DNA of 37,902 nt from a virus. Positions 10,910 to 36,513 of this stretch are shown piece by piece. How positions within the stretch are numbered: the first letter of the stretch is position 1; each line of letters begins with the position of its first letter. The translations under genes were made by a program, and so were the position numbers. Under the pieces are notes generated by a model that had not been told where the DNA came from, did no database searches, and was given only the letters and a program-made list of their open reading frames with translations. The DNA is taken from the IMG/VR virus record IMGVR_UViG_3300047172_000021, positions 1-37,902 of that record. One strand, given 5' to 3'.

Positions 10910-10938
10910 CCTCAATATTAGAGAAAACTATGCTTTTA
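10910..10938 (-). promoter_or_regulatory. Conserved 29-nt element, copy b (TAAAAGCATAGTTTTCTCTAATATTGAGG)
   Basis: Read directly on the minus strand. Intergenic, 36 nt upstream of the 10874 start. Confidence 0.45.
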
Positions 10939-10983
10939 AATTATTCGCGTGTGTGGTATTATGAATAAAACGATGGAGGATTT

Positions 10984-11139
10984 ATGTTAACATTTTTAGG
11001 GTATGTTGCTTTTGGAGTAAGCCTGTTTGTGGTTAGCGTTTTGCGGGATATTTTTTTTCCAGAGAAGCAAAAAGCTAACTCTTGTTCAGTCTGTCGACGC
11101 GCGCTTGGTCGTCCGTCTGATACTTCTGAGCTATTTTAG
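10984..11139 (+). CDS. Small membrane protein on the plus strand (51 aa)
   Basis: Not in the track (under 60 aa). ATG at 10984 is preceded by GGAGGA, and TGGTATTAT (extended -10-like) lies about 25 nt upstream. Translation: MLTFLGYVAFGVSLFVVSVLRDIFFPEKQKANSCSVCRRALGRPSDTSELF (N-terminal TM helix). The 3' 65 nt overlap the convergent 737-aa gene. Confidence 0.4.
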   Translation: MLTFLGYVAFGVSLFVVSVLRDIFFPEKQKANSCSVCRRALGRPSDTSELF

Positions 11140-13288
11140 ACATGGTCCCGGTTCCGCGCTTTGGTTTCCCGGCGGCCATTCCGGCTTGTTTTTCAGCGTT
11201 TTGTTGAGCAAAAACGCCTTGTGCCGCTTGAATTGAGGCTGGAGTCATTGAAGAATCAAGGGCTGATCCCAAAAAGAGACTTAAGCCCTGTCTCACCTTA
11301 TAGCTTGGCTTGGTCTCTCCAAGCTGAGACTCAGTGATTTTCTTGGTAATTTCTTTTGATAAATGATTATGAAGGTCTGGGTACATACCAGTCATATGCT
11401 GAACGTGTTCAGCCGTGAACTCTCCATTTTGAATATGCTCTAAAACACTCATCGGATCGTTTGCAATATTTATGGCCCTCATATAAGAGCGCTCTTTTGC
11501 TGGGTCTTTTTGACTCGTATCAAATGGCATCTTCATGCTTTGAGTGGGCTTTACGGTCGTTAAATAATTGCTCACTCGCATCCTTGCGGCATTCACTAAA
11601 ACATTCTGATCAGGGTAAATTTTAGCCAGTGGGTTTGGATCAGAAGCTTGTGGCTGAACGTCTCCGCCTTGTGCAAAAGCCGGTGTTTGATTTTCATCAG
11701 GCACCACTTCTTGTGGATTAATCACATCTCGATTCATGCCGCCAGAAGAAATAAAATCCATAAGTTTTTCACCAGCCCTTGTCTTATCTCCAGTTTGTTG
11801 CGTGGCTATTTTAGTGCCATCAAAAAGAGCATCAATACTTTTTGTGATCGCACGAGCGCCCATGGAAGCATTTTTGGCATATCGCAATTGACCCACTAAA
11901 TTATCAAAAGACCCTGTTTGGATTGCCTTTAAAATGACTGGATATGTGTATTTTTCAGCCGTCGGAGTCAGGTATTTATCTGCATATTTTCCAAGCATCT
12001 TTGCGACTTCTTTTTTAGCAAAAGCATAACCAAAAATACCCGTTCCCGTTGCAGCAGCTCCTGCCGCAGTCAACGCAGATGCCGTGCTATTCACGAGCTT
12101 ATCTTGCAAAGCTCCAGAATCGATATGACCAAAGCCCATCTTAAAAGCTGTCGGATCAAATGTTTTACCAACGGCCTCATGCTGAGCCGCCACGTCTTCC
12201 GCCGAATCGAGCATGGTTCCGCTTTGGCCAAATTTTAGCTTTGGCTTACCACCAAAAAGCGCTTCTTTTATAGCGGCCCTTTTAGCGGGATCTTCCTCGC
12301 TTGCTGCATAACCAACGCCCGCCATATATGAATCAAGCTTTGCCGCAAGTTTCGCATTATCGATAGCCTCTAAACCTTTCGCGGCACCTGACCCAACAGC
12401 TCCAAATAAGCCGCCAGCACCAAGACCAAAAAGCCCAGAAGCTCCGACATTAAAAAGAGCCGATGATACAGGATGATCAGGGTTTCCCATGCCAAGCATA
12501 GCCTTAGTGCCCTCATCACTTGCTTGAAACGCCATGTTTTCAATTCCAGCCGTTGCGGCTTTTGACAGAATCTGTCCGCCAATAGTGGTGGCTTCTGCCA
12601 GTTTTCCGATCATTGGAATGGCTTCAACAGATTTTGCAACTAATCCAGGCAGGCCTTCACCCGAGACAAGACCGCCAACAAGCCCGGTCCCCTCAGAAAT
12701 TCCGCTAATCAATGGGTTTTCTTCAGCGCGCCCCTTTTGAGCCTCAGCGCTTGTGTCCATTCCAAAAGCTTTATCAAGACCAACTTCATGTGCCGCAAGT
12801 TCCGCACCTGTGGCAATTGGACCCGCAAGACCTTTAGCCACACCTTCGGCGGCTGTTCCAATTTGCTGAGGAAGTGTGCTATATTTATCGGAATCTAATT
12901 GAACTTGATCATTTGGTATTTCGTCAGGCGAATCGATTTTTACTTGTGACGGGTCAATCGGCTCTTGATCAACCTGCACTTGATCTGGTGGTATAATATC
13001 GCCGCCAGCCAAATAATATTCGCAATCAGGCAAATGAGCATGAGCCCTTGAGCAAAATCGATCATCTTGAACATCTCCGCCTTCTGCATAGTTATTAAAA
13101 ATACCTTGCGCAAAAGGATTAGAATCTTTTTTCTTTCGACCGCCGCGATACTCGCTTGGCGTCTCGTACCCTTGAGACTCTAAAGATTGCAAAGCAGAAA
13201 GGCCAAGCTTGTCATAGCACTTACAATTAGGGTGGGACTTCCCATGTGATTTGCAATTAGGGTTTAGACAGGGAAGATAATTTGGCAT
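11075..13288 (-). CDS. Large internal-virion/ejection-like protein (737 aa)
   Basis: ORF track. TAATG coupling. It is the third of three consecutive large low-complexity proteins between the tail protein and the fibre, as in T7/P22-like podoviruses. N-terminus has a Cys/His cluster (CLNPNCKSHGKSHPNCKC). Carries YAEGGDV, LAGGDI and FAQGGDV motifs. Confidence 0.55.
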   Translation of the reverse strand: MPNYLPCLNPNCKSHGKSHPNCKCYDKLGLSALQSLESQGYETPSEYRGGRKKKDSNPFAQGIFNNYAEGGDVQDDRFCSRAHAHLPDCEYYLAGGDIIPPDQVQVDQEPIDPSQVKIDSPDEIPNDQVQLDSDKYSTLPQQIGTAAEGVAKGLAGPIATGAELAAHEVGLDKAFGMDTSAEAQKGRAEENPLISGISEGTGLVGGLVSGEGLPGLVAKSVEAIPMIGKLAEATTIGGQILSKAATAGIENMAFQASDEGTKAMLGMGNPDHPVSSALFNVGASGLFGLGAGGLFGAVGSGAAKGLEAIDNAKLAAKLDSYMAGVGYAASEEDPAKRAAIKEALFGGKPKLKFGQSGTMLDSAEDVAAQHEAVGKTFDPTAFKMGFGHIDSGALQDKLVNSTASALTAAGAAATGTGIFGYAFAKKEVAKMLGKYADKYLTPTAEKYTYPVILKAIQTGSFDNLVGQLRYAKNASMGARAITKSIDALFDGTKIATQQTGDKTRAGEKLMDFISSGGMNRDVINPQEVVPDENQTPAFAQGGDVQPQASDPNPLAKIYPDQNVLVNAARMRVSNYLTTVKPTQSMKMPFDTSQKDPAKERSYMRAINIANDPMSVLEHIQNGEFTAEHVQHMTGMYPDLHNHLSKEITKKITESQLGETKPSYKVRQGLSLFLGSALDSSMTPASIQAAQGVFAQQNAEKQAGMAAGKPKRGTGTMSKIAQKYQTDDQARVDRLNKS

Positions 13289-16232: not shown

Positions 16233-16622
16233 TTATATTTCCTTTTTGAAAACAATTAAATTATTGGTCGCACTATCAAGATGCATTCCATAACCCAGAA
16301 GAACACGAATACTTTGCGTACTGTTTTTCATGGATGGCGTCACCGTTCCAAGAACCTCCTTACAACCACGTTCTTTTGCAGTTTTTACGACCTGATCAGC
16401 CAAGCTTGAGGCAAGCCCCTCGGACCGAAGTTCTGGCTCAACATAAATGTCAATAATGTAGACTTGATTTGGATTTAAAAAACGAAATGTCACAAAACCA
16501 AAATGGGTCTCAATGATTTCGTCTGTGGTTTTTTCTAAGAGATATTTAGCATATTTGCTCATCGTCGGCAGATCGCCGATTGGAGCTGTTGGATCATTAG
16601 GATTTAATAGCTTTAAAGACAT
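16233..16622 (-). CDS. GNAT-family N-acetyltransferase (129 aa) embedded in the virion module
   Basis: ORF track. The acetyl-CoA-binding-like segment is YIIDIYVEPELRSEGLASSLADQVVKTAKERGCKEVLG. Preceded by a copy of the 29-nt element. Confidence 0.7.
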   Translation of the reverse strand: MSLKLLNPNDPTAPIGDLPTMSKYAKYLLEKTTDEIIETHFGFVTFRFLNPNQVYIIDIYVEPELRSEGLASSLADQVVKTAKERGCKEVLGTVTPSMKNSTQSIRVLLGYGMHLDSATNNLIVFKKEI

Positions 16623-16652: not shown

Positions 16653-16681
16653 CCCTCATATATGTGAATAGTATGCTTTTA
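16653..16681 (-). promoter_or_regulatory. Conserved 29-nt element, copy c (TAAAAGCATACTATTCACATATATGAGGG)
   Basis: Read directly. Block 1 overlaps the TAA stop of the 1048-aa gene. Ends 31 nt upstream of the GNAT start. Confidence 0.4.
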
Positions 16682-19600
16682 TCTATTCCCAGTTTGACCG
16701 CCAGCAGATTGTGCCGCAGAAATCGTCCGCCAGCCTTTTTTCATTGCGTACACAATATTTATGCCAGACAAAGATAATCCCTGGCCCGGGCCGACGCCTA
16801 AAGATGAGTCATAAACTTCTGTAAGAATAATTTGAAAAGCCTGGCAGCGCTGTTTAGTTAAAAATATGCGCCATTGCTCTTGATCAGGGCTTGCCCCAAA
16901 AGGAGCTGATACGTCCCCGTATGGACTCGGAACCGATGAGCTGAAGTTACTAGGTAAAATAAGTGTCGATTGTATAGGGCTTGGATTGTAGTCATAAGCG
17001 ATCTGCAAATTCAATTTGTGCGGACTAAAGTACTGGCCCAATAAATAAAAGAAATAGGCCCGTTGATAGCCTTGAAGGCCCGCCATATTAATCCAAGACG
17101 TTATAAAGCTCAAAAGAACAGGATTGGATCCGTCTAAATATAAACCAGGCGATTCTTGATAAGTAACACCCGATGAATTTATAAAAGAGTGCAGTCCCTG
17201 ATAGATACATGATGATACGGACGGGACACCTGAAAACGTGCCCCACTGTTCGTAATAGTAATCGTACATGAGGGTCTGTCCGGTGCTCAGAGTTAGGCGT
17301 ATTTGATTGGTCTCGGGAACATTGACAGCGCTGTTAACATTTGATGAATTAAACGCCTCAACTGGTGCGCCTATGTAGTTGGTTGATAAGTCCCGACCCA
17401 ACAGCCATATGCCCTTGTCAGATTGAAACATCAGGCCGTTTTGCATAAGAACAACGCTTGCTTGATTTGAGCACCCAACGGTCGATGTCACAAATATTGG
17501 CTGACTGTATTGGTTATTTGCGCCCGTATTGTCAGGGCCAGAACCATTAATGTAATAGATCGCATCTTTTTTGAAAATTATTAACTTATCATCCATTGGA
17601 GCAAGAGCCGTTATGGGCCCCGTTGCGCCTGTGGTCCCTGTGTTTGGTGCAATATAAAACGTCAAAAGATCAGAAAACTCTACCGGCGTTCCTTCAATAA
17701 TTTGCTTTGAAAACCACAAAAGGTTTTGGTCCTCGGCGTCAACGACCCATTGTCTAGTGTCAAAAAGAGTTGTGATGTTATATCCGGGAGGGTTTACGTC
17801 CTCAAGGACTCCGCCGTTTGTGTAAATGATGCTATTTCCAACAATCGATGCGTCTGCCAATTTATCAACAAAAGCCACAGAATCACTGGATGTAGAGTTA
17901 AGCTCAGGCGACGTGATGCTAGTAACCTGATAATAAACTTGATTAGCAACAGACCATCTATAAATAACGATTTTCATTTGATTAGAAGTGCTTGCAACCT
18001 TATATGTGAGCCTTAGCGTCGGAACATTTACTGTTATGGAGCCCCCTGTCCCAGAACCCGTTGTTGTTACAAAAAATGGAATGGATGGCGCTGATCTAAA
18101 AATATTTCCTTGATTATCAGACCACTCATACACGGCCTGATAGGCATATGCGTTTGTATTGGTTGCGCCGTCTGGTTGCGCGTGTATAAACCCGCCACTG
18201 GTGGACCACGTGCACGACACATTGTCTGGCCACAAAAAGAAATTTTGTTCTACTGGCAAATATCCGTCATACATCCAGCCAAATCCGCCAGAAATATTTA
18301 AATTATTTCCAACCTCTGACGAATCTATATTTTCCGAACCAATAGAAAACAAACCTATGTTAACCCCGGTTTGACTGTAAACACCGCCAGTCGTTGTTTG
18401 TTGTGAATTGTTCAATGTCTCCAGGGCCTGGATTAAATCCTTGTATAAATAGGGAATGCTCGCTGTGTTTTCAAAAACGGAAACATTTGGAAGCCCTAGA
18501 GTCAAATAACCATTTCCGTTTTCATATGCGAGCTTTGCAATAACCAATGGATTTGCTTGAGTTGATGATGATGCATTTATAAGAAAATATGTTTGTTGTA
18601 CTGGATTTATGGTTTGAGCAGTTCCGCCATTATATGCGACCAACAAATAAACCACACCATTAACGATGAACGCTTTGCTCGCAATGCCAACGCCGCGAAC
18701 AACAGTATAATTAGACAAAGGGGTTCCGGCGCTCGAGATAAAGCCAGTAAAAATGGCATTTGTCACAACGCTATTATAAGAATATGTATTTGAGTTTTCG
18801 GCCAAAACTTGGCAGGACCCATTTTGTGCGGCGGCCGTTATGTTAGTAACAGACGGAAGGCTAAGCAATGAAGAAGGAGCAAAATTTTGAATTAATGTTC
18901 CGTTATAAACATAGGCCGAGGCAACATATACATAGGAATTGGCGTTGTTCCAAAAGCTAATGTAAACAGTTGGTGGCGTGACGGTTTGATCTATGCAAAC
19001 CGACAAAAGAGCCGCCACATTTGTAGGTCCATTAAAATCTAGAACCGTGCTTGTGGTTGAATTTAATGAAATTTGAATTTCTGATAAATAAGCCACATGC
19101 ACCCCTTGGGCGCCAGCAGTAGTATTATAAGAAACTATAAGGGCATTATTTGATGCGTTGTTAAGAGAGGCCGCGTCCCATCCTGGATTTGACGAAATTG
19201 CAACATAAACCTCAGAGACAAGGGTTTGCGAAGCCGATATAATCGATGGGTTTGCAATTGGAATGGACACATATATAAGCAGAGTCGATACGGGCGCCAC
19301 TATAACAAAATATGCACCAACAACATAGCATCTTGGTGATCCAGAAATTGATCCTGGAATTGCTGTTGGTGCCACTATGTTTTGGCCAGTAGTAGAATCG
19401 GCTATGGCGTATTTATAAACCGAAGATCCCGCCACAGTTTCCGTATAAACGGTAAGACACAGTCCGCTTGATGAGGTTACAGAATCACACTGAGTTTGAT
19501 TTACACTATTTCTAATTAGCGGTAACGTGTTGATTTCAACTGATGAGTATGTCCCCTTATTAACCCAGCTATTTGTTGAGGCCGATAGCGCCGCAATAGA

Positions 19601-19825
19601 TGTTCCAATCGCTGTCAGGTTGTCATTGAAAGTAGTTAAATATGAAAAAGAGTTATTGGGCAGGCTAGATAATTGTTGATAACCATTTCTTTTTTGAAGA
19701 AGGCCGCCCTTTGTAAACACGCTGTTTTGTAAAGCAAGAAAATTTCCAATTTCAACGCGCTTAGGATCAGTCTTTGTATCAAGGCCCTTTAGAAACGCGA
19801 TGTCTACATTTGTTTTTACTAACAC
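16679..19825 (-). CDS. Large tail structural protein (1048 aa; nozzle/tail-tube-B-like by position)
   Basis: ORF track. GTG start preceded by AGGAGG-4 nt. It is the largest ORF and lies between fibre-like genes and internal virion proteins. Confidence 0.5.
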   Translation of the reverse strand: MLVKTNVDIAFLKGLDTKTDPKRVEIGNFLALQNSVFTKGGLLQKRNGYQQLSSLPNNSFSYLTTFNDNLTAIGTSIAALSASTNSWVNKGTYSSVEINTLPLIRNSVNQTQCDSVTSSSGLCLTVYTETVAGSSVYKYAIADSTTGQNIVAPTAIPGSISGSPRCYVVGAYFVIVAPVSTLLIYVSIPIANPSIISASQTLVSEVYVAISSNPGWDAASLNNASNNALIVSYNTTAGAQGVHVAYLSEIQISLNSTTSTVLDFNGPTNVAALLSVCIDQTVTPPTVYISFWNNANSYVYVASAYVYNGTLIQNFAPSSLLSLPSVTNITAAAQNGSCQVLAENSNTYSYNSVVTNAIFTGFISSAGTPLSNYTVVRGVGIASKAFIVNGVVYLLVAYNGGTAQTINPVQQTYFLINASSSTQANPLVIAKLAYENGNGYLTLGLPNVSVFENTASIPYLYKDLIQALETLNNSQQTTTGGVYSQTGVNIGLFSIGSENIDSSEVGNNLNISGGFGWMYDGYLPVEQNFFLWPDNVSCTWSTSGGFIHAQPDGATNTNAYAYQAVYEWSDNQGNIFRSAPSIPFFVTTTGSGTGGSITVNVPTLRLTYKVASTSNQMKIVIYRWSVANQVYYQVTSITSPELNSTSSDSVAFVDKLADASIVGNSIIYTNGGVLEDVNPPGYNITTLFDTRQWVVDAEDQNLLWFSKQIIEGTPVEFSDLLTFYIAPNTGTTGATGPITALAPMDDKLIIFKKDAIYYINGSGPDNTGANNQYSQPIFVTSTVGCSNQASVVLMQNGLMFQSDKGIWLLGRDLSTNYIGAPVEAFNSSNVNSAVNVPETNQIRLTLSTGQTLMYDYYYEQWGTFSGVPSVSSCIYQGLHSFINSSGVTYQESPGLYLDGSNPVLLSFITSWINMAGLQGYQRAYFFYLLGQYFSPHKLNLQIAYDYNPSPIQSTLILPSNFSSSVPSPYGDVSAPFGASPDQEQWRIFLTKQRCQAFQIILTEVYDSSLGVGPGQGLSLSGINIVYAMKKGWRTISAAQSAGGQTGNR

Positions 19826-20994: not shown

Positions 20995-21278
20995 TAAAAT
21001 ACTCCAATCGTCACAACACAAGCGGCGTTGCTTGTAAGAGTTAGTGTTTTGTCATTAAAAGGGGCGCTTCTATAGATCGTAGCTGCCGACGTTATGTCTA
21101 AAATGGTCCAGCCTTGCATTGTCTTCGCCAAGTTATGATTAATAACGGTCGAACCATTTGCCAATGCAATATTTTTTAAAATCCCCATATTTGTCATTGG
21201 CGACGCTATGATAGGGTTTAGTATTGCGGCCCATTTTGTGATCATTTGTGAAAATGGCAGGTTTGTGCTTAACTGCAT
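20994..21278 (-). CDS. Hypothetical structural protein (94 aa)
   Basis: ORF track 20994..21326. The ATG at 21276-21278 overlaps the upstream TGA (TGATG). Confidence 0.5.
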   Translation of the reverse strand: MQLSTNLPFSQMITKWAAILNPIIASPMTNMGILKNIALANGSTVINHNLAKTMQGWTILDITSAATIYRSAPFNDKTLTLTSNAACVVTIGVF

Positions 21279-22354
21279 CACCAACCACCATTTGATCCGT
21301 TGTTGCCGCCATTTGATCCGCCCCAAATACCGTCTTTTCTGGTTTCGCTGATCGTGTCAGCTTGTCCAATATCTCTATTTTGAGCCATTTGCTCAATACG
21401 GGTTTTTAAGAACAATAATTCTGCATCAAGCTTTGATGTGTCCGATCCTTCTTCTTTATCGAGCATATATTTGGCGGTTCTAACAATTACATACCTTAGC
21501 CATCCAGAAAACCCAATAGTTGTTAAATCGGTGTCTTTTAAAAGAGCGGCTAATTTTGAAGCATACCAAATATAAATGATCTGCCCGCCAGAAGGTGTCG
21601 GTATGAAATTTATTGTCTGATTGTTTCCAGCCGTTCCCATCATTCTATAGCGCATGTTAAACACGCCATAAATAGTAGAGTTTGAATTTGGATAAACGTA
21701 TTGATTTCTGTCAACGAAATCATAACGGTTAATTGTGACTCTGGCCGGCTGATTAAGGCTTGGATTAACTCCAAGATCAACGCCAGTAAGCTTATAAAGA
21801 GCTGGGGCCGGAGTTCCGGTTGTGCCCGTATATTGGCCGCCCAAATAGTTAGTCACCCCATCGGGCAGTGCATAGTTTTGGACTGAACCATTGGTTTGAA
21901 TTTGAACTTGATTAGAAGAAAAATAATCTTCGTATGAACCAATCAACAAATCATAAAGCTCATATAAAGCAAGCCTTGCAAAAGCATTGGCTTCTGGAAT
22001 TGTTACAAAATCAGACCCTAATCGATCAGCAGTCTGATAAGAACGCATCCTTAGTTCATATAACGACATTTCAGAAGGAGGAGCTGCAACCATTTGCACG
22101 ATTGTGCTATATGGGCTTGTGCCAGCGGCATTAACGCCTGCGACCTGGTAATAATACATGATGCCAATGCCGGGAAGTGAATCAACAAAGTACGCAATTG
22201 TCGCAACGGTTGCGTAATTAGAGAAATTCACTCCGTCTGTGCTTCTTTGAATTTGATAAGATGTAGCCCCTAATGACCCCTGCCAGCTGATGAGAATATT
22301 CCCATCAGCTTGCTCCGCAGTAACATTCTGAGGCTGGTAAGGGATTTGTGCCAC
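21278..22354 (-). CDS. Structural protein with an N-terminal fibronectin type III-like domain
   Basis: ORF track, 358 aa, GTG start. FN3-like segment: VTAEQADGNILISWQGSLGATSYQIQRSTDGVNFSNYATV...YYYQVAGVNAAGTSPYS. Gly/Asn-rich C-terminus ends in GGW. Confidence 0.55.
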   Translation of the reverse strand: MAQIPYQPQNVTAEQADGNILISWQGSLGATSYQIQRSTDGVNFSNYATVATIAYFVDSLPGIGIMYYYQVAGVNAAGTSPYSTIVQMVAAPPSEMSLYELRMRSYQTADRLGSDFVTIPEANAFARLALYELYDLLIGSYEDYFSSNQVQIQTNGSVQNYALPDGVTNYLGGQYTGTTGTPAPALYKLTGVDLGVNPSLNQPARVTINRYDFVDRNQYVYPNSNSTIYGVFNMRYRMMGTAGNNQTINFIPTPSGGQIIYIWYASKLAALLKDTDLTTIGFSGWLRYVIVRTAKYMLDKEEGSDTSKLDAELLFLKTRIEQMAQNRDIGQADTISETRKDGIWGGSNGGNNGSNGGW

Positions 22355-22357: not shown

Positions 22358-23056
22358 TTATAACCCATCAATTGAAACTGTTGACCCATCAAATAAGAAC
22401 GTCAAAGCAACAACGGAGTTGTTAGCCGGAGCTGTTACAATTTGAGTTGTAACAGAAGAGCTGGTTGCTGCAAAAAACTGCACAAGAACAATGGCGCCAG
22501 AGTTTGTTGCAATACTTGTGTTGTTCAAAGTTTGATTTGGATCACCACAAACTGAAACTTCTGTAATTTGACTAACACCAGGAACGCCAACCGTGCCAGT
22601 TCCACCAAGCGAAGCAGTCGCGGCCGCTACAAATGATGTTCCTAGGTTTGGCGTAAAACCAGGGGTCAAACCCGCTGTCACCCATTGCGCGGTCGTTGTG
22701 GTTCCTAAAGATGTTATTTGATAAACATGGCCAGCAGTTAAAGAGGTAGTTGTGGTAGATGTGGGCGGCGCAATAATTCCATTAAACCCATCAATATAAG
22801 AAGTGAAGTTATTTGTAAATTGCACAAGGGCATAACCCGCAATTGGATTTGGATTTGTAGATCCACGACTTGTGCCAGGGGTTGCAGAGGTGTTCATGAA
22901 TACGTTATTGATGTACCCATTGGACTTTAGCGACCTGATCCCGAGACCATTTCCATTGGTGCTGTCAACAATAAAGCTACAGTTTACTTCCATTGGTTTT
23001 GCGATGTTTGTGTAGAATGATTTTCCGTTAAGTCCAAAGCCTCTAGGCTGTGACAT
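22358..23056 (-). CDS. Structural protein, hypothetical (232 aa; decoration or tail component)
   Basis: ORF track. AAGGAG lies 8 nt before the ATG. First gene after the capsid terminator and a copy of the 29-nt element. Confidence 0.5.
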   Translation of the reverse strand: MSQPRGFGLNGKSFYTNIAKPMEVNCSFIVDSTNGNGLGIRSLKSNGYINNVFMNTSATPGTSRGSTNPNPIAGYALVQFTNNFTSYIDGFNGIIAPPTSTTTTSLTAGHVYQITSLGTTTTAQWVTAGLTPGFTPNLGTSFVAAATASLGGTGTVGVPGVSQITEVSVCGDPNQTLNNTSIATNSGAIVLVQFFAATSSSVTTQIVTAPANNSVVALTFLFDGSTVSIDGL

Positions 23057-23144
23057 AAGGTTGTCTCCTTAAATAACCAGGGATTTCTCTCGGCAGGACC
23101 CTGGACCATCGGCTGCCGCAGTACGCTCAAAGTAAATCTTTGAA

Positions 23145-23173
23145 CCTCATAGTTAACGATTTCTATGCTTTTA
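23145..23173 (-). promoter_or_regulatory. Conserved 29-nt element, copy d (TAAAAGCATAGAAATCGTTAACTATGAGG)
   Basis: Read directly. Immediately downstream of the capsid-gene terminator and 89 nt upstream of the 23056 start. Confidence 0.45.
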
Positions 23174-25650: not shown

Positions 25651-27576
25651 TTAAGCCGCAGCAGGTGCTGCGTTTGTGTTTGGAACTAATGGTGATGTCG
25701 CATTTGGTTGTGGGTTTGCCGTGGGTTGTGGCGCTTGAGGCATTGGCGGTGGCGTCATTGCCATTTTGATCGTTTGAACTTGAGCAAAGAAGTCGCGAAG
25801 CATGTCGGCCTTCTTCTCTTCAAGCTTCGCTGCCAAATAGAGATTGATGTATTGAGTGGTGAGCGTGGTTGCCAGGTTCAAATCCATGAAAGGATCTGGC
25901 GGCATGTATTTCCCGCTTTCCACAATGTTATCCAGAATCTGAAAGATGCGCTCTTCGGACGCATTATCGAGCTGTTCGTTTTGCTCTAGGTCCTGCGGTG
26001 TGCGCATGAGCCTTCGGCCTTCTTTTAGGGTGAGCATTCCGGCTTGAACCAATTCAGTAATGGTCTGTATTCGTCCGGCCGGAGTTCTTGGTAGTGAACT
26101 TTCTGTAAAGCATTGGATAACAAAGGGATCTTTTAAGAACTTCATGGCAGGAAGATCGATTTCCTTTGTGCCGTCTTTATTGGGATAAACAGTCTGATAC
26201 TTGCCGTCTCGCTCAGCTATTTCCATTGCTTGATCAGCGATGAGATAAGCGGCATCGACAAAAACATTGTCGTATTTCTTAGATAGGGCCGCAAATCTAT
26301 CAGTTGAGATATCGTCTGCTGATCGGATAGCCGCGCCCGAGTTTAAACCCTCTGGTTTTTGCGAGGTCGCCTGCATGGCCGAGACTCCGCATTGCTGAAA
26401 TCCATATTGAATAAGCTTATCGCGCTCACTGTATAATTCTGGAGCATTACAAGGGGCCACTTCATAGCTTGGCTTTGTCCCTGAATAGGTAACGATTACC
26501 CCTATTTCATTATTATTATGAGCCTTAACGACCTTAGATGACTGATCGATAAAGACCCTTGGAACACCAACAAGCGTAATGGACCTGGCTATCGTATAAA
26601 GGATACGGTTCAAAGTTAATTGCGTGCCAAAAAGCTGAGTCGCAAGGCTTTGGCCCCAAAATCCTAAGAAAGGATCTGAGTAATTCAAGAAAACGAACGG
26701 GTATTTGATCTTATGCCATGGCTCATCAAGGATCACTCCTTGAGTAGTTGCAATGACATGCCTTCCGGGCGTGTAGCCTGGGGCATATCTATCTGGACCT
26801 GATGCTAATTTCCAACCCTCCACAACCATGATTTGATCGGCCGTCGTTCTTCCTGAATCTGGCGCGTTATCAGGGTATGATTGCGGGGTTTCTTTAATGA
26901 TTGAGCCCACTTTTTTAGGGCTGTTGGCCAATAACTTGCCACGGTCCATAAGCTTTAACTGCAGCATCTGCTGAGGATCCGCATTTAGTGAATCGTTCTC
27001 ATCAATGAAAAGGTCTGTAACCATGACTCGGTCTACGCAAACCTTCGCGTTGTCGCCCTCATATATCTTTAAGCACCCGGTCCCCATGACGATACAATCG
27101 CGCAAAGCTTTGATTGCCTTTTCATAGAGCTTTGTTTGGTAAAACTCTCCTAAAATGAACTGGTTAAGCCTTTGAGCAAGGTGCCTTTGTTTATAATCAG
27201 CGTTGTCAGTTAAAAACTTTGGCTGTGGCTGAGCCTGGCCTAATCTGGATACTAGCGTATCCGTGCAAGCTTGGATTAGATTAAAGGTGGGTCTATCGTC
27301 TGGCAGAGTCTTGCTCTTATCCATTTTAGAGACGTTTGAACCAGCATAAGAATAGATTGAGAGGCCTGAATACATTCTTACGCCGACCGCAAGCTGTCGC
27401 ATGCGATATGTTTGATTGGTCTTAAGATAGGAAGCTGTTCCGCAAAGATCGACCGCCATTCTCTCTGGCGTCTCTGAGTTCCACCATTCGGCAAGCATAG
27501 CCATTTCATTAGTGCCAGAGGACTTAGTGATCATTTTAATTCTAGATGGGGACTCTTTGCGTGGACTAACCTTCAT
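25651..27576 (-). CDS. Portal protein (641 aa)
   Basis: ORF track. It is the large ORF between the terminase block and scaffold/capsid. The P/A/Q-rich C-terminal tail is common in portals. Call is by synteny and size. Confidence 0.7.
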   Translation of the reverse strand: MKVSPRKESPSRIKMITKSSGTNEMAMLAEWWNSETPERMAVDLCGTASYLKTNQTYRMRQLAVGVRMYSGLSIYSYAGSNVSKMDKSKTLPDDRPTFNLIQACTDTLVSRLGQAQPQPKFLTDNADYKQRHLAQRLNQFILGEFYQTKLYEKAIKALRDCIVMGTGCLKIYEGDNAKVCVDRVMVTDLFIDENDSLNADPQQMLQLKLMDRGKLLANSPKKVGSIIKETPQSYPDNAPDSGRTTADQIMVVEGWKLASGPDRYAPGYTPGRHVIATTQGVILDEPWHKIKYPFVFLNYSDPFLGFWGQSLATQLFGTQLTLNRILYTIARSITLVGVPRVFIDQSSKVVKAHNNNEIGVIVTYSGTKPSYEVAPCNAPELYSERDKLIQYGFQQCGVSAMQATSQKPEGLNSGAAIRSADDISTDRFAALSKKYDNVFVDAAYLIADQAMEIAERDGKYQTVYPNKDGTKEIDLPAMKFLKDPFVIQCFTESSLPRTPAGRIQTITELVQAGMLTLKEGRRLMRTPQDLEQNEQLDNASEERIFQILDNIVESGKYMPPDPFMDLNLATTLTTQYINLYLAAKLEEKKADMLRDFFAQVQTIKMAMTPPPMPQAPQPTANPQPNATSPLVPNTNAAPAAA

Positions 27577-29454: not shown

Positions 29455-29483
29455 CCTCAATATTGAGGAAAACTATGCTTTTA
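29455..29483 (-). promoter_or_regulatory. Conserved 29-nt element, copy a (TAAAAGCATAGTTTTCCTCAATATTGAGG)
   Basis: Read directly in the 32-nt gap after the terminase stop. Block 2 forms the perfect palindrome CCTCAATATTGAGG, whose GAGG is the SD of the next gene. Confidence 0.45.
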
Positions 29484-29487: not shown

Positions 29488-30957
29488 CTAAAACATCCCA
29501 GAATCACTACTCCAACCAGAGCCATCATCCTCTGGCCAATTCTTAGATAAGTTCTCAATCAAGCGCTCGCGCTCTCTCTCCCAAATGCCGTCCGATTGCT
29601 TTTGATACCAGCCAGGCGACCCAACCGCTGGGAAGATTTCTTTAGGCGCCGAATGGTAATGATACGAATTCCGCCAATTATAAAGCATGGCATCTGTTCT
29701 GTGGTTTGGGAGAGATGGATGCTCTTTCTTTGGAATGGAGATTCTGTCTCCATCTGTCTTCCAAACGAGAGTGGTCAGCTCATTTATTAAGCCGACACAC
29801 CTCTCATGGATTTTGATCTTCCCTTGAATGAAGTCAGCGTTCATCATCTCAATGAAATCCACCTTGCCGTTTTTATCAGCATATTCGAATGGAATATTAG
29901 ATCTTTGCCTCATGGACTCCACGCCCTGCTTATTCGCGCCATCGATGATAATCCTAGAAGGAGATAAGAACGGGTGGGCCAGGTATTGATTAATCTTATC
30001 GGTCACCTGATCAAAGGTCATTTTAGGCTTAGCGAAGTCGTCAAAGATATAGAGATTCATGTCGTTCTCATGGAACATCGAATGAATGAACGCGTTATCA
30101 TCTTCCCATCCAGTGTCCACGCCTAATGTATAGGTCCAGCCATTGGGCGAGAGTCCTTTTGGGGGCTCTTTATAAAGGTTGCGGTCTGGGTTGAACTTAT
30201 AGACAAGCTTATCTTCTTCAATCGCCCATTGACCCAGATACATCTGCTTAAACATTGGAAGTTCTGTGATGTATGGCTGATTGGCCATAAGCTCTGCTAT
30301 TTCTTTAGCCCATTTGTCTTTCATATAAGGATTGTCAGCAGTGTTGGCTTTAACTAAATGCCAGCCGGGCTCTATTCCTGTTGTGATATCAAAGAATAGG
30401 CCACGGCAATAGTTCGATGGTGTTCCTATCATGCATATAGTTCCACCAAGATCGGCCATAGCTGGCTTTAGAATACCAAAGACCAGCTCTCGCATGTTGA
30501 TTGTAAAGGATGCGGCCTCATCGATAATAGCGACTTTAAACTTACGCCCTAGGATCTTGTTCTTATCGTCCTCTGATGAATCTGCGCCCATGAGATAGAT
30601 CACTGAGCCGTTCGGAAGGGTTGCGGTTAAGAGCGTCTCATTGAACTTCATATGAAGCTTATACTTTTGGTTTAGGACCTTTAGGATGTCCTTCCACATG
30701 ATACCTTTGGCTGAATCTCTCGTGAGCGCCACATAGAGGCAGCTTGTTCCTGGATGCTCTAATGCTTCCTTAATGAGATAGAGTCCTGCCGTATAGGATT
30801 TGCCGAAGCGTCTTGTGGCAAATAACGCTTTGAATTTAGCGGGATGGAGGATGAATTCAGTTTGAAGCGGGAAGTCTTTATCTAGCAGGTCTATGCCTTT
30901 TATCTCGCTATGAGATTTTGCAAGCCTTCTAGCTAAGATCCTTGCTGCGACATTCAT
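29488..30957 (-). CDS. terL: Terminase large subunit
   Basis: 489 aa. Walker A-like ATRRFGKSYT. Walker B-like KVAIIDEAASF. The C-terminal nuclease-like region has GVDTGWEDD. ATGA overlap with the MTase stop. Confidence 0.9.
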   Translation of the reverse strand: MNVAARILARRLAKSHSEIKGIDLLDKDFPLQTEFILHPAKFKALFATRRFGKSYTAGLYLIKEALEHPGTSCLYVALTRDSAKGIMWKDILKVLNQKYKLHMKFNETLLTATLPNGSVIYLMGADSSEDDKNKILGRKFKVAIIDEAASFTINMRELVFGILKPAMADLGGTICMIGTPSNYCRGLFFDITTGIEPGWHLVKANTADNPYMKDKWAKEIAELMANQPYITELPMFKQMYLGQWAIEEDKLVYKFNPDRNLYKEPPKGLSPNGWTYTLGVDTGWEDDNAFIHSMFHENDMNLYIFDDFAKPKMTFDQVTDKINQYLAHPFLSPSRIIIDGANKQGVESMRQRSNIPFEYADKNGKVDFIEMMNADFIQGKIKIHERCVGLINELTTLVWKTDGDRISIPKKEHPSLPNHRTDAMLYNWRNSYHYHSAPKEIFPAVGSPGWYQKQSDGIWERERERLIENLSKNWPEDDGSGWSSDSGMF

Positions 30958-32705
30958 TCAAGCCTTTTGCGCGCAATCTCCGCATATTCTGGGTTCATCT
31001 CAATGCCTATAAAAGCAAATCCTAGGCTCTTAGCTGCAACTCCCGTTGACCCAGATCCCATAAATGGATCAAGCACCGTTCCGTTTGGAGGCGTCACCAT
31101 CTTGATTAAGTATTCCATGAGCTTGATGGGCTTGACTGTAGGATGGAAATTCTCGTCAAAGGCTGGCGCACGAGCTAGTCCTTCACCAATTCCTGCATTG
31201 TGACGGCGCACAGCCCTCTTTGGCGTACCCTCACATCCACTATTCTTCTCAGATTTACTCGCCTTTGAGCAATAAAAGAATCGTGAGGCGCCGCCGGAGT
31301 CGCTATGTCCGCTTGAAGTTGCAGCGTGCCTTTTGAGAGAGCCAAACATGGCAACACTTTCTGAATCTTTGTTATTCCTAATTGCAGCCGATGATTTAGT
31401 AAATCCAATCTGCTCATCCAACATCGCCGCCGCTTCCTCGTCGAAGATGACGTTTGCAGGCCAGCGGCCTTGAGACGTCATCTCTCCGCTGTTGGTTTTT
31501 CCCGTTGATGTTCCAGACATAGAATTAGATCTGACAATTGTCTTCGTCCGAATCATCTTAGGGCGTTCCTCGCTACCAATCCGACTCGCATCCACATTGA
31601 TAGCACCCGTGCCATACTTCTGCACGTTTTGCGCAACGGTTAGGCCCTTCTCGAGAGGCTTGCGAGCTAAACAGATAGGTTCAACGTTTGGGGATAAGGC
31701 TATGGCCTTCGATGTAGCAGGCTCGTGAACAGAAGGTGTTTGGATGAAGTTTAATTTCTGTTCGAGAGCGCTCAAAAGACTTCCGACAGGTGAGGCACTC
31801 AACGGTTTTCCAAGCCCATCGTTTTGGAGCGTGTTCGGAGGCGTGCGCTTCAACAGACAAGACTTCAAGATTTTCAAGTCGGTTGTCAGACTTGATTCCA
31901 TTTCGGTGGTGAACGTGTTCGCGAGTTGCGAGGTCTCTTCCAAGATGTCGAGCCATGATAACTCGATGTTCAAGTTGGAATGCTTCTCCGATTCGGATCG
32001 CAACGTAACCATCGCTTCGGACAAAACGTCCGGTGTAAGCGTGATTTTTCCGGCAATCCATTGAGCAGTATTTAACTCCGTGCCGAACGCGCTTTGGTTT
32101 GACGCTGAATGATTTTTCGCAATTAACGCAAACAATAGTGATTGGCATTCACGAACCAAATTATCTATCAAAACCGCGCCAGTCAATGGTTTGGTGGCGA
32201 GGCAAATAATTTCCGCGGCTGGTTTTAAAGAAGTGCCCCAGCCTTGCCATTGTTTTGCGGCGTCGGTTGAAGGTACGGTTTCGAAATACTGACGGGCTGT
32301 AGTTTTTTTTTCTGATTGAAACGCTCTAGAATTAGAGCCTGCCCTGTTTGCATTACCAACAATCTCACGCTCAGCGCCCGCCGCCTTATCAATCGCTTTT
32401 GAGACATCCATAGACTTCGGAAACCCAGACCCATAAAGCCACATGATTTGGTCTCTGATTTCAAAGCCTGCATCTTCAATATTCACAGCCAAGCGGTGAT
32501 AAGTGCGAGTGCCGCCGAACGCGAGCAAATGACCGCCAGGTTTTAATACCCGTAAAGCCTCTCGCCATATTTCAACCGAAGGAACATCGCAATCCCACTT
32601 CTTTCCCATGAAGGAAAGGCCATAAGGAGGGTCCGTAACGATGGCCTCAACTGAGTTATCTTTTAATTCTTTCATCTGTTCTAGGCAGTCACCGATCATT
32701 ATCAT
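30954..32705 (-). CDS. DNA methyltransferase (beta-class N6A/N4C type, DPPY then FxGxG) carrying a ~177-aa internal insertion
   Basis: 583-aa uninterrupted ORF. Motif IV is IVTDPPYG at aa 22-29. Motif I is LDPFMGSGSTGVAA near the C-terminus. Also GTGAINVDASRIG, GRWPANVIFD and HPTVKPIKLMEYLI. The segment KPxxExICLAxKPL occurs twice (aa 161-174 and 338-351). Confidence 0.85.
   Translation of the reverse strand: MIMIGDCLEQMKELKDNSVEAIVTDPPYGLSFMGKKWDCDVPSVEIWREALRVLKPGGHLLAFGGTRTYHRLAVNIEDAGFEIRDQIMWLYGSGFPKSMDVSKAIDKAAGAEREIVGNANRAGSNSRAFQSEKKTTARQYFETVPSTDAAKQWQGWGTSLKPAAEIICLATKPLTGAVLIDNLVRECQSLLFALIAKNHSASNQSAFGTELNTAQWIAGKITLTPDVLSEAMVTLRSESEKHSNLNIELSWLDILEETSQLANTFTTEMESSLTTDLKILKSCLLKRTPPNTLQNDGLGKPLSASPVGSLLSALEQKLNFIQTPSVHEPATSKAIALSPNVEPICLARKPLEKGLTVAQNVQKYGTGAINVDASRIGSEERPKMIRTKTIVRSNSMSGTSTGKTNSGEMTSQGRWPANVIFDEEAAAMLDEQIGFTKSSAAIRNNKDSESVAMFGSLKRHAATSSGHSDSGGASRFFYCSKASKSEKNSGCEGTPKRAVRRHNAGIGEGLARAPAFDENFHPTVKPIKLMEYLIKMVTPPNGTVLDPFMGSGSTGVAAKSLGFAFIGIEMNPEYAEIARKRLE
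31681..32148 (-). CDS. HNH homing-type endonuclease (155 aa) nested in a different frame within the methyltransferase ORF
   Basis: ORF track. HNH core is EHRVIMARHLGRDLATREHVHHRNGIKSDNRLENLEVLSVEAHASEH. It is flanked by two zinc-knuckle-like units (CVNCEKSF...YCSMDC and CLTCRKSF...FCSRAC). Frame offset is 1 relative to the MTase. Confidence 0.8.
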   Translation of the reverse strand: MPITIVCVNCEKSFSVKPKRVRHGVKYCSMDCRKNHAYTGRFVRSDGYVAIRIGEAFQLEHRVIMARHLGRDLATREHVHHRNGIKSDNRLENLEVLSVEAHASEHAPKRWAWKTVECLTCRKSFERSRTEIKLHPNTFCSRACYIEGHSLIPKR

Positions 32706-34315: not shown

Positions 34316-34828
34316 TTAAGCAAATGGATCAAACACCACCAGGGGCTTGTCTGATTCAATGATTGGGTTGTTATTGTATTTAGAGGCCCATATCGATATC
34401 CCAATATGGGTAAGGTGGGTGATAATCATAAACGGGTCTTTTGTGAGCGCTCGGCCTATGCCCGTACGCCTGTAGTCCTTATTTACGTAGCAGTAATGAA
34501 GCTTATAGGGCTCAACCAAGGACCAACCAAGAACCGTGTCATAGTCGTCTGAAAGAACGGCAAGCTTTACGACAGCCCCAGGTCTTGCGAGCAATGATCT
34601 GATGTATCTTTGATAATTTTGGTAATAAGAATTGTTCTCAATTAGCTTAAAATACTCATTTCCGTATTTGAGGGATCTGAGCATTTTAGAGAGGATCATT
34701 GGTTCATAGTTTTTTGGAAGCAGGGATCCTGGATATAGGATTATGTCGAACGAACTTTGATCACCCTTTTTTTCTGAGGGTTCTCTTTGAGGTTCATCTG
34801 TTTCATGGTCCAGCTTCGAATCTTCCAT
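34316..34828 (-). CDS. GNAT-like acetyltransferase domain protein (start uncertain)
   Basis: ORF track, 170 aa. Motif-A-like segment: LGWSLVEPYKLHYCYVNKDYRRTGIGRAL. The first 88 nt overlap the upstream ORF. An alternative start is M44 (34699). Confidence 0.55.
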   Translation of the reverse strand: MEDSKLDHETDEPQREPSEKKGDQSSFDIILYPGSLLPKNYEPMILSKMLRSLKYGNEYFKLIENNSYYQNYQRYIRSLLARPGAVVKLAVLSDDYDTVLGWSLVEPYKLHYCYVNKDYRRTGIGRALTKDPFMIITHLTHIGISIWASKYNNNPIIESDKPLVVFDPFA

Positions 34829-35238
34829 AAGTGCTCAAACCTTCTCTTTTTATACATGATCGTCATACCATGTATTTTAAAACCCATGTTTTCTAAGCGC
34901 GCCCGAATCTCCGTATTGAATTTACCCTCAGCCGCCAAAGACATAATCATTTTATCGGCAGGGTCATTAAAGGCATAAGTCTCCGCCTTCTCTGAAACCA
35001 TTTGATAGTAAAGCTCCTTGGCTGAGAGGTTTATTATGTCCTCGGTTAAAATAACCGTGGGCTCTCTCAAGTTCCTAAAGCCTGTTGAGTCTGTGAACTC
35101 GGCGTCCTTGAATTCATTTTCTTCAAGCTTTTTGTCCCATTGTTTTGATAACTCTTTAAACTCCTCTGAATCAAAAGATGAGCTTCTTCGTCTCTTCCAA
35201 AGCTTATTGTGCTTTCTTTTCTTGTGGACTTGGATCAT
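34741..35238 (-). CDS. Basic protein with a C-terminal sigma-70 region-4/LuxR-like HTH (candidate transcription factor)
   Basis: ORF track 34741..35274. ATG at 35236-35238. The C-terminal DKMIMSLAAEGKFNTEIRARLENMGFKIHGMTIMYKKRRF has the spacing of a region-4-type HTH. This is my reading only. Confidence 0.4.
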   Translation of the reverse strand: MIQVHKKRKHNKLWKRRRSSSFDSEEFKELSKQWDKKLEENEFKDAEFTDSTGFRNLREPTVILTEDIINLSAKELYYQMVSEKAETYAFNDPADKMIMSLAAEGKFNTEIRARLENMGFKIHGMTIMYKKRRFEHLWKIRSWTMKQMNLKENPQKKRVIKVRST

Positions 35239-35647
35239 CAATAGCACCTGTTTCGGCTGTTGATGTCGCTGCATCTGTTTTTGATTTGTTTTCTAAAACT
35301 TTCGCGGCAGCTTTTGCAATTGAGGCATTCTTAATTTCCATAAGCTTTGCATGCGCTATTTGATTGCAAGCAGACTTCCGAAGATAGTGAATGAAATAAG
35401 CGTCTTCTTTAAAGTCCTCTGTCGGACCCAAGTGCATGATCATTTCGGCGAGTGCAAATTTTTGGCTGTCATGTTCTGCCTGACATAGCGCCCCTGAAAT
35501 GATCCGATCGGACCACTCTTCAAATTCAGTCATTCCCATTGGAAGCGGTCTTCGCTCTAAGAGCTGATCTGCAATCACTGCCGTTGGTGTGTTGACCGTG
35601 TTTTTGCCTATGATCTTTGATTTGATCTTATGGAATAGGTTTTTCAT
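35204..35647 (-). CDS. Hypothetical protein (147 aa)
   Basis: ORF track. SD is GAGGTAAAA-ATG. Confidence 0.5.
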   Translation of the reverse strand: MKNLFHKIKSKIIGKNTVNTPTAVIADQLLERRPLPMGMTEFEEWSDRIISGALCQAEHDSQKFALAEMIMHLGPTEDFKEDAYFIHYLRKSACNQIAHAKLMEIKNASIAKAAAKVLENKSKTDAATSTAETGAIDDPSPQEKKAQ

Positions 35648-35919: not shown

Positions 35920-36194
35920 TGCACAGTCTCTTCTGGAGCAAGCGCTTTTTCGGCAACGGCTTTAGCCTGCTCTGCCTGTTCTTTTTGCATCTTTTTGTTT
36001 GTTTTCTCGATTTTGTCTGCGATATTTTCGATTTTAAGCATCAATTTATGCTGTCTCTCTTGTGCTTTTTGTTCCTCAAAGCACGAAATCCCATATTCTG
36101 CCGCCATTTGCGTAAATTGATTCAATAGGGTTTGGATTTCAGAAGGCTCATTTGGAGGCAACGGAATCTCACTGGTTTGTGCTTGAGTTTCCAT
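35916..36194 (-). CDS. Hypothetical coiled-coil protein (92 aa)
   Basis: ORF track. TAATG coupling. Confidence 0.5.
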   Translation of the reverse strand: METQAQTSEIPLPPNEPSEIQTLLNQFTQMAAEYGISCFEEQKAQERQHKLMLKIENIADKIEKTNKKMQKEQAEQAKAVAEKALAPEETVQ

Positions 36195-36454
36195 TATCGT
36201 TTGCCTTTTTTAGACACAATTTTTGCGGAATTGGCTTTTGCGATTGCATCTGCTTGTGCTTTTTGAAACGATTGCGCCTGCAGCATCTCAAATTCTTTAT
36301 GGAGATTCATGACCTTTTTTTTTGAGGCCTGAATAAGATTAGGAATGCGATCTAAGTTCGCCACATGCTCACCGAGCGTTGTGCATTCTTTGATGTATTC
36401 TTGCTGAACTTGAGAAATCAGCCGGTCTGGCGTTTGCGATGTTTGTTGATCCAT
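36194..36454 (-). CDS. Hypothetical coiled-coil protein (86 aa); first gene of the leftward early operon
   Basis: ORF track. SD is GAGGAGATTTA-ATG. Confidence 0.5.
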   Translation of the reverse strand: MDQQTSQTPDRLISQVQQEYIKECTTLGEHVANLDRIPNLIQASKKKVMNLHKEFEMLQAQSFQKAQADAIAKANSAKIVSKKGKR

Positions 36455-36484
36455 TAAATCTCCTCGAGGAAAGCGTTGTTTATT

Positions 36485-36513
36485 TCCATTAAGGATTCTG
36501 GATTATGCTTTTA
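36485..36513 (-). promoter_or_regulatory. Conserved element, copy e (TAAAAGCATAATCCAGAATCCTTAATGGA; block 1 perfect, block 2 degenerate)
   Basis: Read directly. Intergenic, ends 31 nt upstream of the 36454 start. Confidence 0.4.

Follow-up and report, generated by a model that had tools for sequence, protein, structure and literature searches.

Repeated phage-specific elements, probably middle/late promoters, in the genome of an uncultured podovirus

A repeated element in the window and its genomic setting

The DNA investigated here, called the window, is the 37,902-nucleotide (nt) stretch that makes up positions 1 to 37,902 of IMG/VR virus record IMGVR_UViG_3300047172_000021. Its ends (positions 1-127 and 37776-37902) are identical over 127 bp, and the window is therefore a complete genome of ~37.8 kb (about 37,775 bp), circularly assembled or terminally redundant. 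It is the genome of a podovirus without a cultured relative, and its genes lie nearly all on the minus strand. The subject of this study is a two-block element of ~29 nt that is repeated along this strand, begins with the 10-mer TAAAAGCATA (block 1) and probably acts as a phage-specific promoter.

Exact copies of TAAAAGCATA were counted seven times in the window, while 0.18 were expected from dinucleotide-preserving shuffles; none of the 100 shuffles reached seven copies and none contained more than one. The chance expectation of 0.07 given in the original prediction was therefore of the right order of magnitude. The six minus-strand copies that it listed, starting at 10929, 16672, 23164, 25309, 29474 and 36504, were recovered exactly, but its statement that all copies lie on the minus strand has to be amended by a seventh exact copy on the plus strand. 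The two-block pattern TAAAAGCATAG-N8-WATWTTGAGG, allowing up to two mismatches, was found at four sites (10910-10938, 23145-23173, 25290-25318 and 29455-29483) against 0.01 expected. A second block ending in GAGG or GACG is present in five copies (a, b, c, d and f), as had been proposed; four of these fit the pattern, and copy c has the same blocks 1 nt closer together. Copy e, which had been described as consisting of block 1 alone, carries a second block in degenerate form only. The copies are as follows.

29455-29483, minus strand: copy a, TAAAAGCATAGTTTTCCTCAATATTGAGG, in the 32-nt gap after the large terminase gene; predicted transcription start (+1) at G 29458
25290-25318, minus strand: copy f, TAAAAGCATAGCCCCTCTTAATATTGACG, inside the scaffold gene at codon 92; predicted +1 at 25293
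23145-23173, minus strand: copy d, TAAAAGCATAGAAATCGTTAACTATGAGG, directly after the capsid terminator; predicted +1 at 23148
16654-16681, minus strand: copy c, TAAAAGCATACTATTCACATATATGAGG, with block spacing 1 nt shorter; predicted +1 at 16657
10910-10938, minus strand: copy b, TAAAAGCATAGTTTTCTCTAATATTGAGG, in the 200-nt gap before the 138-amino acid (aa) protein and tail-fibre genes; predicted +1 at 10913
36484-36513, minus strand: copy e, block 1 exact, block 2 degenerate (CTTAATGGAA)
37523-37532, plus strand: seventh copy of block 1, exact, antisense within the open reading frame 37412-37768, with no clear block 2

All six minus-strand copies are co-oriented with the genes. Five of them occupy five of the 12 intergenic gaps of at least 25 nt, and the other lies inside the 336-aa scaffold gene, starting from codon 92 and ~750 nt upstream of the capsid start, a distribution already noted in the original prediction. 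Copy c has the 1048-aa virion gene (probable nozzle) on one side and the 129-aa GNAT gene on the other. The distance from the element to the next start codon varies among copies from 9 to ~113 nt, and no shared sequence was found upstream of the aligned copies. One-mismatch variants of TAAAAGCATA numbered 13 against 5.3 expected, an enrichment that is not clear over chance; the near-match at 14078, to which attention had been drawn, consequently carries no weight. The GAGG of copy a is also the Shine-Dalgarno sequence of the following gene (ATG 29449), and pairing of GAGG with a nearby CCTC is possible in copies a, b and c. The palindrome CCTCAATATTGAGG described for copy a is real, but it is kept neither in the other copies nor in relatives and appears incidental; the AT-rich palindromes ascribed to block 2 are likewise not conserved.

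Copy e lies in the divergent control region that heads the operon of the candidate specificity factor discussed below, between a TATAAT hexamer and the first gene, and may be a weak promoter or an autoregulatory site. The plus-strand copy may be a chance occurrence (~0.09 expected per strand), a binding site or a promoter of antisense transcription. A short scaffold protein nested in the gene and starting after copy f was also considered; as no methionine codon with a Shine-Dalgarno sequence was found nearby for an internal in-frame start, it is unsupported.

The remaining genes were assigned with PHROGs and Pfam.

1982-2851: RecT (Pfam)
3669-4232: Gp157 (Pfam)
4432-4704: XRE regulator (PHROGs, Pfam)
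6725-7351: GH25 lysozyme (Pfam)
8077-10458: tail fibre (PHROGs)
16233-16622, minus strand: 129-aa GNAT protein (Pfam, 8e-11), conserved in relatives
16679-19825: 1048-aa virion protein (PHROGs)
21278-22354: SU10-adaptor-like protein (Pfam)
23250-24545: capsid, weakly SU10-like (Pfam)
25651-27576: portal (PHROGs)
29488-30957: large terminase (PHROGs)
30954-32705: DNA methyltransferase (PHROGs)
34316-34828, minus strand: 170-aa weakly GNAT-like protein, conserved across relatives
35204-35647, minus strand: 147-aa core protein without a Pfam domain, adjoining the gene of the candidate factor

The 129-aa protein had been called a GNAT moron; it is a true GNAT protein, but both acetyltransferase-like genes are kept across relatives and neither is therefore a moron. 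The operon behind copy e contains the genes of the 147-aa protein, the candidate factor, the GNAT-like protein, a 119-aa protein, the small-terminase-like protein and the large terminase. It had been taken for an early leftward operon and is instead the head of a conserved late/packaging operon. In a 264-nt gap (5487-5750) ahead of the recombination/regulator gene block, a sigma-70-like site, TTGTCA-17-TAGAGT (5685-5713, minus strand), overlaps the inverted repeat GGCCCTTG..CAAGGGCC and is a candidate host-type early promoter or operator. Upstream of RecT, a 274-aa protein (2848-3672, minus strand) carries in its C-terminal part a long repeat composed nearly exclusively of Ala, Asp, Phe, Tyr and Val (..AADAAFAAYAA..); no match to a family was obtained for it.

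No cultured relative was detected among 50,697 deposited phage records, either by megablast of 22 kb or by tblastn of capsid and portal, and at least 176 IMG/VR contigs, many of 35-40 kb, carry a related capsid. One relative with 79% capsid identity (locus L093; CAVYVX010000006.1, 153256-174537) lies within a 360-kb contig of an Acidobacteriaceae metagenome-assembled genome. It contains frameshifted genes, and its G+C content is below that of the one visible flank, the ~4 kb at the end of the retrieved locus. This relative may be a prophage and may hint at the host, and the host range of the group possibly includes Acidobacteriota. Other relatives are binned with Saccharibacteria as whole contigs of ~33-37 kb.

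Counterparts in relatives and anatomy of the element

In 1.14 Mb of sequence from relatives, TAAAAGCATA had one coding-strand and five opposite-strand matches. Relatives with 75-81% capsid identity each repeat instead a word of their own, 10-25 nt long and almost always on the coding strand. Naive k-mer searches and searches for loose pairs of repeats were too noisy to reveal these words, whereas anchoring on homologous positions, with each phage's own 5' half as probe, was successful. Four positions are shared: downstream of the terminase gene, within the scaffold gene, directly behind the capsid terminator and downstream of the 1048-aa virion gene; they are homologous to copies a, f, d and c of the window, respectively. 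Words were recovered in the following loci, among others.

L003: AGTGCCATTCCAGATAC at 646, 5642 and 9242, with a variant at 11354; its counterpart of the window block TAAAAGCATAG is AAGTGCCATTCC
L010: GAGCATTCCGGAC at 5787, 9246 and 11368
L027: AAACGCCATT at 666, 5281, 7401 and 13718
L111: CCGACCTTTTGGATAAGA at 13659, 17551 and 19713
L039: a 21-mer in three copies
L013: an 18-mer in four copies

Over 16 relatives the phage-specific words amounted to 45 copies on the coding strand and four on the other strand, the latter all from the shortest words. Relatives have their own element at the position after terminase (homologous to copy a), and copies homologous to copy c were located at 13719 in L027, 18459 in L037, 19539 in L018 and 18038 in L031. 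At the position of copy f the relative's own word lies inside coding sequence. This copy encodes protein, typically x-Ile-Pro/Ser-Asp-x, yet it holds the word of the phage concerned, and in the window an identical extra 3 nt, equal to one codon, is common to the in-gene copy and every intergenic one. Both observations argue for selection on a nucleic-acid signal that co-evolves within each genome. The presence of a different word at the same positions in each relative is the behaviour of promoters that co-evolve with a phage-encoded specificity factor. When post-capsid and in-scaffold copies were compared in a 22-nt window, the similarity exceeded that of all shuffles in 12 of 39 close relatives only, because the coding copy is degenerate; the counts of long words are the better statistic. 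Conservation in related genomes, proposed as a check in the original prediction, thus applies to the positions, while the word itself is replaced by each phage's own. Together with the shuffles, the relatives' own words indicate that the elements are very probably phage-specific transcription signals, as had been suggested, and neither sigma-70 sites nor chance repeats.

Most relatives have a common 3' core, 4-8 phage-specific nt followed by CAT-N4-GAC-N6-T/GARG, where the slash precedes the predicted start. The window version is 3 nt longer than this core and is without GAC; the invariant part of the element in ~25 relatives is the 3' end T/GARG. The arrangement after the capsid gene is the same in the window and in the relatives: a terminator hairpin with a T-run is followed by an element of ~25 nt, by a hairpin of variable sequence and by a conserved leader. 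The 5' half of this element differs from phage to phage, and its 3' end is T-G-A-R-G. In the window the two hairpins are located as follows.

23174-23206, minus strand: terminator-like hairpin with T-run, which ends the capsid transcript and abuts copy d
23125-23145, minus strand: hairpin from the fourth nt of GAGG, the predicted 5'-terminal stem-loop of the copy d transcript

A conservative automated test detected a strong hairpin with a T-run abutting the element in 16 of 25 relatives and also in the window, an arrangement that fits re-initiation after termination and is hard to square with an element acting in RNA. The hairpin on the other side, which has different sequences at the same place in relatives, always starts at the fourth base of GARG. 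Its arms contain G-U pairs, indicating that it forms at the RNA level. A stem-loop a few bases from the 5' end is a classical arrangement in stable phage and bacterial mRNAs. The transcription start was placed at the G of GAGG (29458, 25293, 23148, 16657 and 10913 in copies a, f, d, c and b), because the hairpin starts at the fourth GARG base and a later start would lie inside the stem. With this predicted start, block 1 is at -25 to -15 and not at -10. In view of the invariant 3' end and the hairpin at a fixed distance from it, the proposal that block 1 (TAAAAG/CATAnT) is a -10-only element is not supported. A TAnnnT hexamer (-10) was not conserved across the elements of relatives, and a sigma-70 consensus scan returned no more sites than in shuffles and none at the elements.

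Known promoter geometries were compared with the aligned copies. A sigma-70 housekeeping promoter was rejected, as the elements have no TTGACA/TATAAT pair and no shared upstream sequence, and the sigma-54 (-24/-12) and Bacteroidetes (-33/-7) geometries were rejected by eye.

Several relatives have insertions that separate the promoter-like element from the capsid terminator. Open reading frames resembling homing endonucleases (GIY-YIG or HNH) occur there in L018, L022, L041, L019/L021, L029 and L015, and a tRNA gene is inserted at ~11380-11450 in L008. This interval looks like a hotspot for mobile insertions.

Candidate reader of the element

The best candidate for a protein that reads the element is encoded close to copy e.

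34741-35238, minus strand: 165-aa protein with a predicted C-terminal four-helix helix-turn-helix (HTH) domain of the LuxR/GerE/sigma-region-4 type

The protein had been put forward in the original prediction (as 166 aa) and has kept its place as the best candidate, on suggestive evidence. The window phage and the phage of locus L081, both with full non-structural gene sets, share only six non-structural proteins: the 147-aa, 165-aa, GNAT-like, 119-aa, 123-aa and 97-aa small-terminase-like proteins. Since both phages have the elements, a homologous reader is to be expected among the structural proteins or these six, of which only the 165-aa protein has a predicted DNA-binding fold. It was found in 43 loci, in both clades of relatives. 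The AlphaFold model of its C-terminal domain shows helices at residues 63-87, 93-103, 108-117 and 124-137 with a predicted local distance difference test (pLDDT) score above 89. A profile of 28 homologues matched the LuxR-type HTH of DesR in the PDB at a marginal E value (2.7e-4), with weaker matches to NarL and VraR and a weak match to region 4 of sigma-H (E = 0.05). The Pfam families GerE, Sigma70_r4_2 and HTH_23 were matched by only 2-3 of the 28 members. A search with the single sequence returned the protein itself only, and a profile search returned 17 unnamed proteins. Among the conserved early proteins, none diverges more than the 165-aa protein (mean distance 0.62-0.65).

In a sliding-window analysis of covariation between protein sequence and promoter type (816 windows of 12 residues from 14 proteins), the 165-aa protein showed its peak on the predicted recognition helix (r = 0.35-0.39; ranks 9, 17 and 25 of 816). 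Values were ~0 over most of the protein and rose to ~0.27 at the first HTH helix and just past the recognition helix, a pattern that is suggestive. In L111 the HTH gene follows a sigma-70-like promoter within a divergent control region and precedes all phage-specific elements, as expected for a cascade. From these data the 165-aa protein is proposed tentatively as the promoter reader, at somewhat less than an even chance. The neighbouring 147-aa core protein has 459 metagenome homologues and a confident AlphaFold model (pLDDT 91); it was considered as a sigma factor and rejected, as its model is not sigma-region-2-like.

An RNA polymerase or sigma factor was sought by several approaches. In the complete genome no Pfam match to either was obtained even at E values up to 10, including RNA_pol PF00940, and neither was matched in the window with PHROGs, with sequence and profile searches of the window proteins against the PDB or with scans for polymerase catalytic motifs. 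Polymerase and sigma Pfam families were not found either in the early regions of four relatives; what the examined early regions encode is limited to small proteins and to functions in replication or recombination. Both the 737-aa and the 567-aa protein are rich in Ala and Gly and of low complexity, which is typical of ejection proteins, and the 413-aa protein is rich in Gln, Ala and Gly. To judge from an inspection of its alignment consensus and not from a database match, the 1048-aa protein looks like a nozzle or tail-tube protein; altogether, the large proteins without annotation have the appearance of ejection, nozzle or fibre proteins. The absence of a detectable polymerase from the complete genome makes host polymerase with a phage-encoded specificity factor the more likely reader.

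Promoter model, rival explanations and the downstream leader

According to the proposed model, each element would be one asymmetric, contiguous coding-strand signal of ~29 bp belonging to a middle/late promoter. Its parts would be the recognition block TAAAAGCATAG, specific to the phage and located at about -25 to -15, a spacer with a loose preference for pyrimidines, A/T-rich sequence from -6 to -1 and initiation at the G of GAGG. The full copies would re-start transcription along the long morphogenesis operon: after terminase (a), in the scaffold gene, thereby boosting capsid (f), after the capsid terminator (d), before the GNAT/ejection-protein block (c) and before the fibre block (b). Host RNA polymerase would be redirected by a phage specificity factor expressed from the head of that operon, the HTH of the 165-aa protein would read block 1, and copy e, before the factor's own operon, would give feedback. 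That the elements are phage-specific promoters is regarded as quite probable from their sequence and arrangement. The complete model, in which the phage's own middle/late promoters are served by host polymerase redirected by a phage factor, with the 165-aa protein as best candidate, is favoured with more reserve.

Several results weigh against this model. A position of block 1 at -25 to -15 does not agree with the usual sigma region 4 site at -35, and a contiguous signal from -25 to +4 resembles the promoter of a single-subunit polymerase more than that of a bacterial holoenzyme. The factor gene of the window is downstream of copy e, so that read-through from a host-type promoter has to be assumed. 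A sigma region 2 was found nowhere, the 147-aa model had no fold match in the PDB, and Foldseek gave no significant match for the HTH model of the 165-aa protein against the PDB and a viral structure library. In Mantel tests of promoter-word against protein distance the HTH domain reached r = 0.34 (p = 0.0015) but was not singled out, since the adaptor (0.35) and the 119-aa protein (0.37) had similar values; shared ancestry therefore explains most of this signal. The top 12-aa windows of the covariation analysis belong to the adaptor, a structural protein, and pairs of phages with the same promoter type are not nearest relatives in their HTH.

The elements might instead be promoters of an unrecognisable phage-encoded RNA polymerase, be it a strongly diverged single-subunit enzyme or an enzyme of a new type, perhaps a virion or ejection protein delivered with the DNA. 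Their architecture is of the T7/SP6 type, with a contiguous, phage-specific ~22-29 bp abutting the start, A/T-rich sequence upstream of it and a G followed by purines. In several relatives, positions -9 to +4 read GATACTATT/GAAG or GACACATAC/GAGG, which is near the SP6 core; the start position and downstream bases of that core are those of GACACTATA/GAAG. The shift of specificity between close relatives, as among T7, T3 and SP6, and the several large virion proteins without annotation point in the same direction. However, the Pfam, PDB and catalytic-motif searches of a complete genome yielded no polymerase, the 737-aa and 567-aa proteins are of the low-complexity type, the 413-aa protein is rich in Gln, Ala and Gly and the 1048-aa protein resembles a nozzle or tail-tube protein, and the early regions examined in relatives hold no proteins beyond the small and the replication or recombination types. 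This explanation is considered improbable. It is somewhat less doubtful, but still unlikely, that the lineage either uses a factor unlike known sigma factors on a multisubunit polymerase (the 165-aa protein with or without small conserved proteins) or hides a new polymerase among its virion proteins.

As operators, the elements would be sites at which a phage protein blocks, pauses or modifies passing transcription complexes, by a repressor roadblock or by antiterminator loading. Such a role leaves the family-wide T/GARG at a fixed distance, the hairpin from the fourth GARG nt and the strict co-orientation with genes unexplained; right after a terminator there is nothing left to regulate, and the sites are asymmetric and single, neither dyads nor direct repeats. 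It would suit copy e, where block 1 without a good block 2 lies between the TATAAT hexamer and the first operon gene, the seventh copy, which is inverted and inside a gene, and a best candidate reader that is an ordinary-looking HTH protein. Operators are judged to be very improbable. Least probable of all is an action in RNA, with the elements as processing sites or translation-start signals of a polycistronic late mRNA, comparable to T7 RNase III sites or mycobacteriophage start-associated sequences. It would be in keeping with the location of all full copies on the transcribed strand, with the GAGG of copy a serving as the Shine-Dalgarno sequence of the next gene and with the possible GAGG-CCTC pairing, but not with a start-codon distance of 9 to ~113 nt and a copy within a gene. 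Element and Shine-Dalgarno sequence are distinct in relatives, there is no conserved partner with which block 1 could pair, and at the post-capsid site block 1 directly follows an intrinsic terminator, so that most transcripts would lack it.

The proposed promoter set was compared with known systems. It resembles those of T7, T3 and SP6 in its contiguous, asymmetric signal abutting the start (~23 bp in those phages), repeated in one orientation before late genes, in an upstream part that is phage-specific and differs between close relatives, in an A/T-rich stretch from -4 to -1 with a predicted start at G followed by purines, and in copies ahead of scaffold/capsid and after terminators. It differs in that no cognate single-subunit polymerase gene was found in the window genome, in the greater length of the window element (-25 to +4) and in its most variable positions, which are -22 to -17 and not -12 to -8. 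The SP6 promoter sequence, ATTTAGGTGACACTATAG, was confirmed in the literature. Unlike in Autographiviridae, no DNA polymerase or primase was found, and the recombination genes for RecT and Gp157 are present.

The T4 gp55 promoter is TATAAATA. With phiEco32 gp36 and T4 gp55 the elements share the character of non-canonical promoters without a -35, for which a small phage protein would redirect host polymerase, and the presence of many copies ahead of middle and late genes; the capsid is also distantly SU10/phiEco32-like (weak Pfam SU10_MCP and SU10_adaptor matches). Consensus and length are different: the phiEco32 gp36 consensus is AATGTA centred at -11.5 (PMC12276001), which the elements do not have. 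The candidate here has only a region-4/LuxR-like HTH, and the recognition block would be at -25 to -15.

T4 middle promoters combine a MotA box at -30 with a sigma-70 -10 and use AsiA. Here, too, a phage-specific upstream box would replace the -35 while host polymerase is kept, but no TAnnnT -10 is conserved and the box is nearer to the start; MotA and AsiA homologues were not detected. Late activators of Gram-positive phages, the Ltr superfamily (RinA, ArpU and LtrA-C), are proteins of ~100-140 aa, encoded directly ahead of the packaging genes, with a conserved C-terminal DNA-binding domain, which resembles sigma-70 region 4 in the LtrA family; they act at a single late promoter upstream of terS with three 7-nt direct repeats, without cross-activation between phages (PMC3753634). 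The candidate reader is similarly small, phage-specific and encoded near packaging genes, with an LtrA-like similarity to sigma region 4, but it had no Pfam match to the RinA, ArpU or LtrA families, and 5-6 dispersed, single, asymmetric sites abutting the start stand in contrast to one promoter with direct repeats.

The system is best classed with a known kind, the phage-specific promoter sets whose phage-encoded reader co-evolves with them. The reader/promoter sets of T7, T3 and SP6 gave the most useful orthogonal expression tools, and the lineage described here holds dozens of distinct natural promoter specificities in small phages without a recognisable polymerase or sigma factor. If a protein of ~140-165 aa sets specificity on host polymerase, this would provide a ready library of orthogonal factor/promoter pairs and a new way to re-program bacterial RNA polymerase. 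A contiguous promoter from -25 to +4, so far found only with single-subunit phage polymerases, would then be read by a multisubunit enzyme. The predicted starts also supply a transcription map for an uncultured phage group without any annotation.

Downstream of copy d, the conserved leader contains a further structure.

23076-23118, minus strand: H-type pseudoknot within the leader 23054-23124, upstream of the Shine-Dalgarno sequence of gene 22358-23056

Stem 1 is CGGCAG/CTGCCG and stem 2 is CCAGGG/CCCTGG, with the conserved loop AGAGAAAT and a 5' ACTG. In an alignment of 31 sequences with 13 pairs, 91% of cells were paired; 133 compensatory cells were counted against 38 in shuffles, and the covariation score was 0.89 against 0.10-0.15 in slid controls. 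This covariation indicates a functional RNA downstream of the element; the pseudoknot may be a translational operator. Rfam had no match for the leader or elsewhere in the window. The pseudoknot is a new, strongly supported RNA motif in a late-gene leader and a discovery in its own right.

In a clade with ~60% capsid identity (L052, L056, L065, L069, L074 and L076), a different conserved leader, ..CCCTGAGATGTCCTC..CTTCCC..ACGGTGAGA.., is located upstream of the homologue of gene 22358-23056, and promoter-like elements of the form TAGGAC-N5-GACCCTAAT/AGATGCC occur. The repeat GGGACTAAATAGCnCCGCTAGGAGCCCT was observed a few bases ahead of start codons in L076 (4249 and 15694) and L072 (~4725); we take it to resemble the 'start-associated sequence' GGGATAGGAGCCC of cluster K mycobacteriophages.

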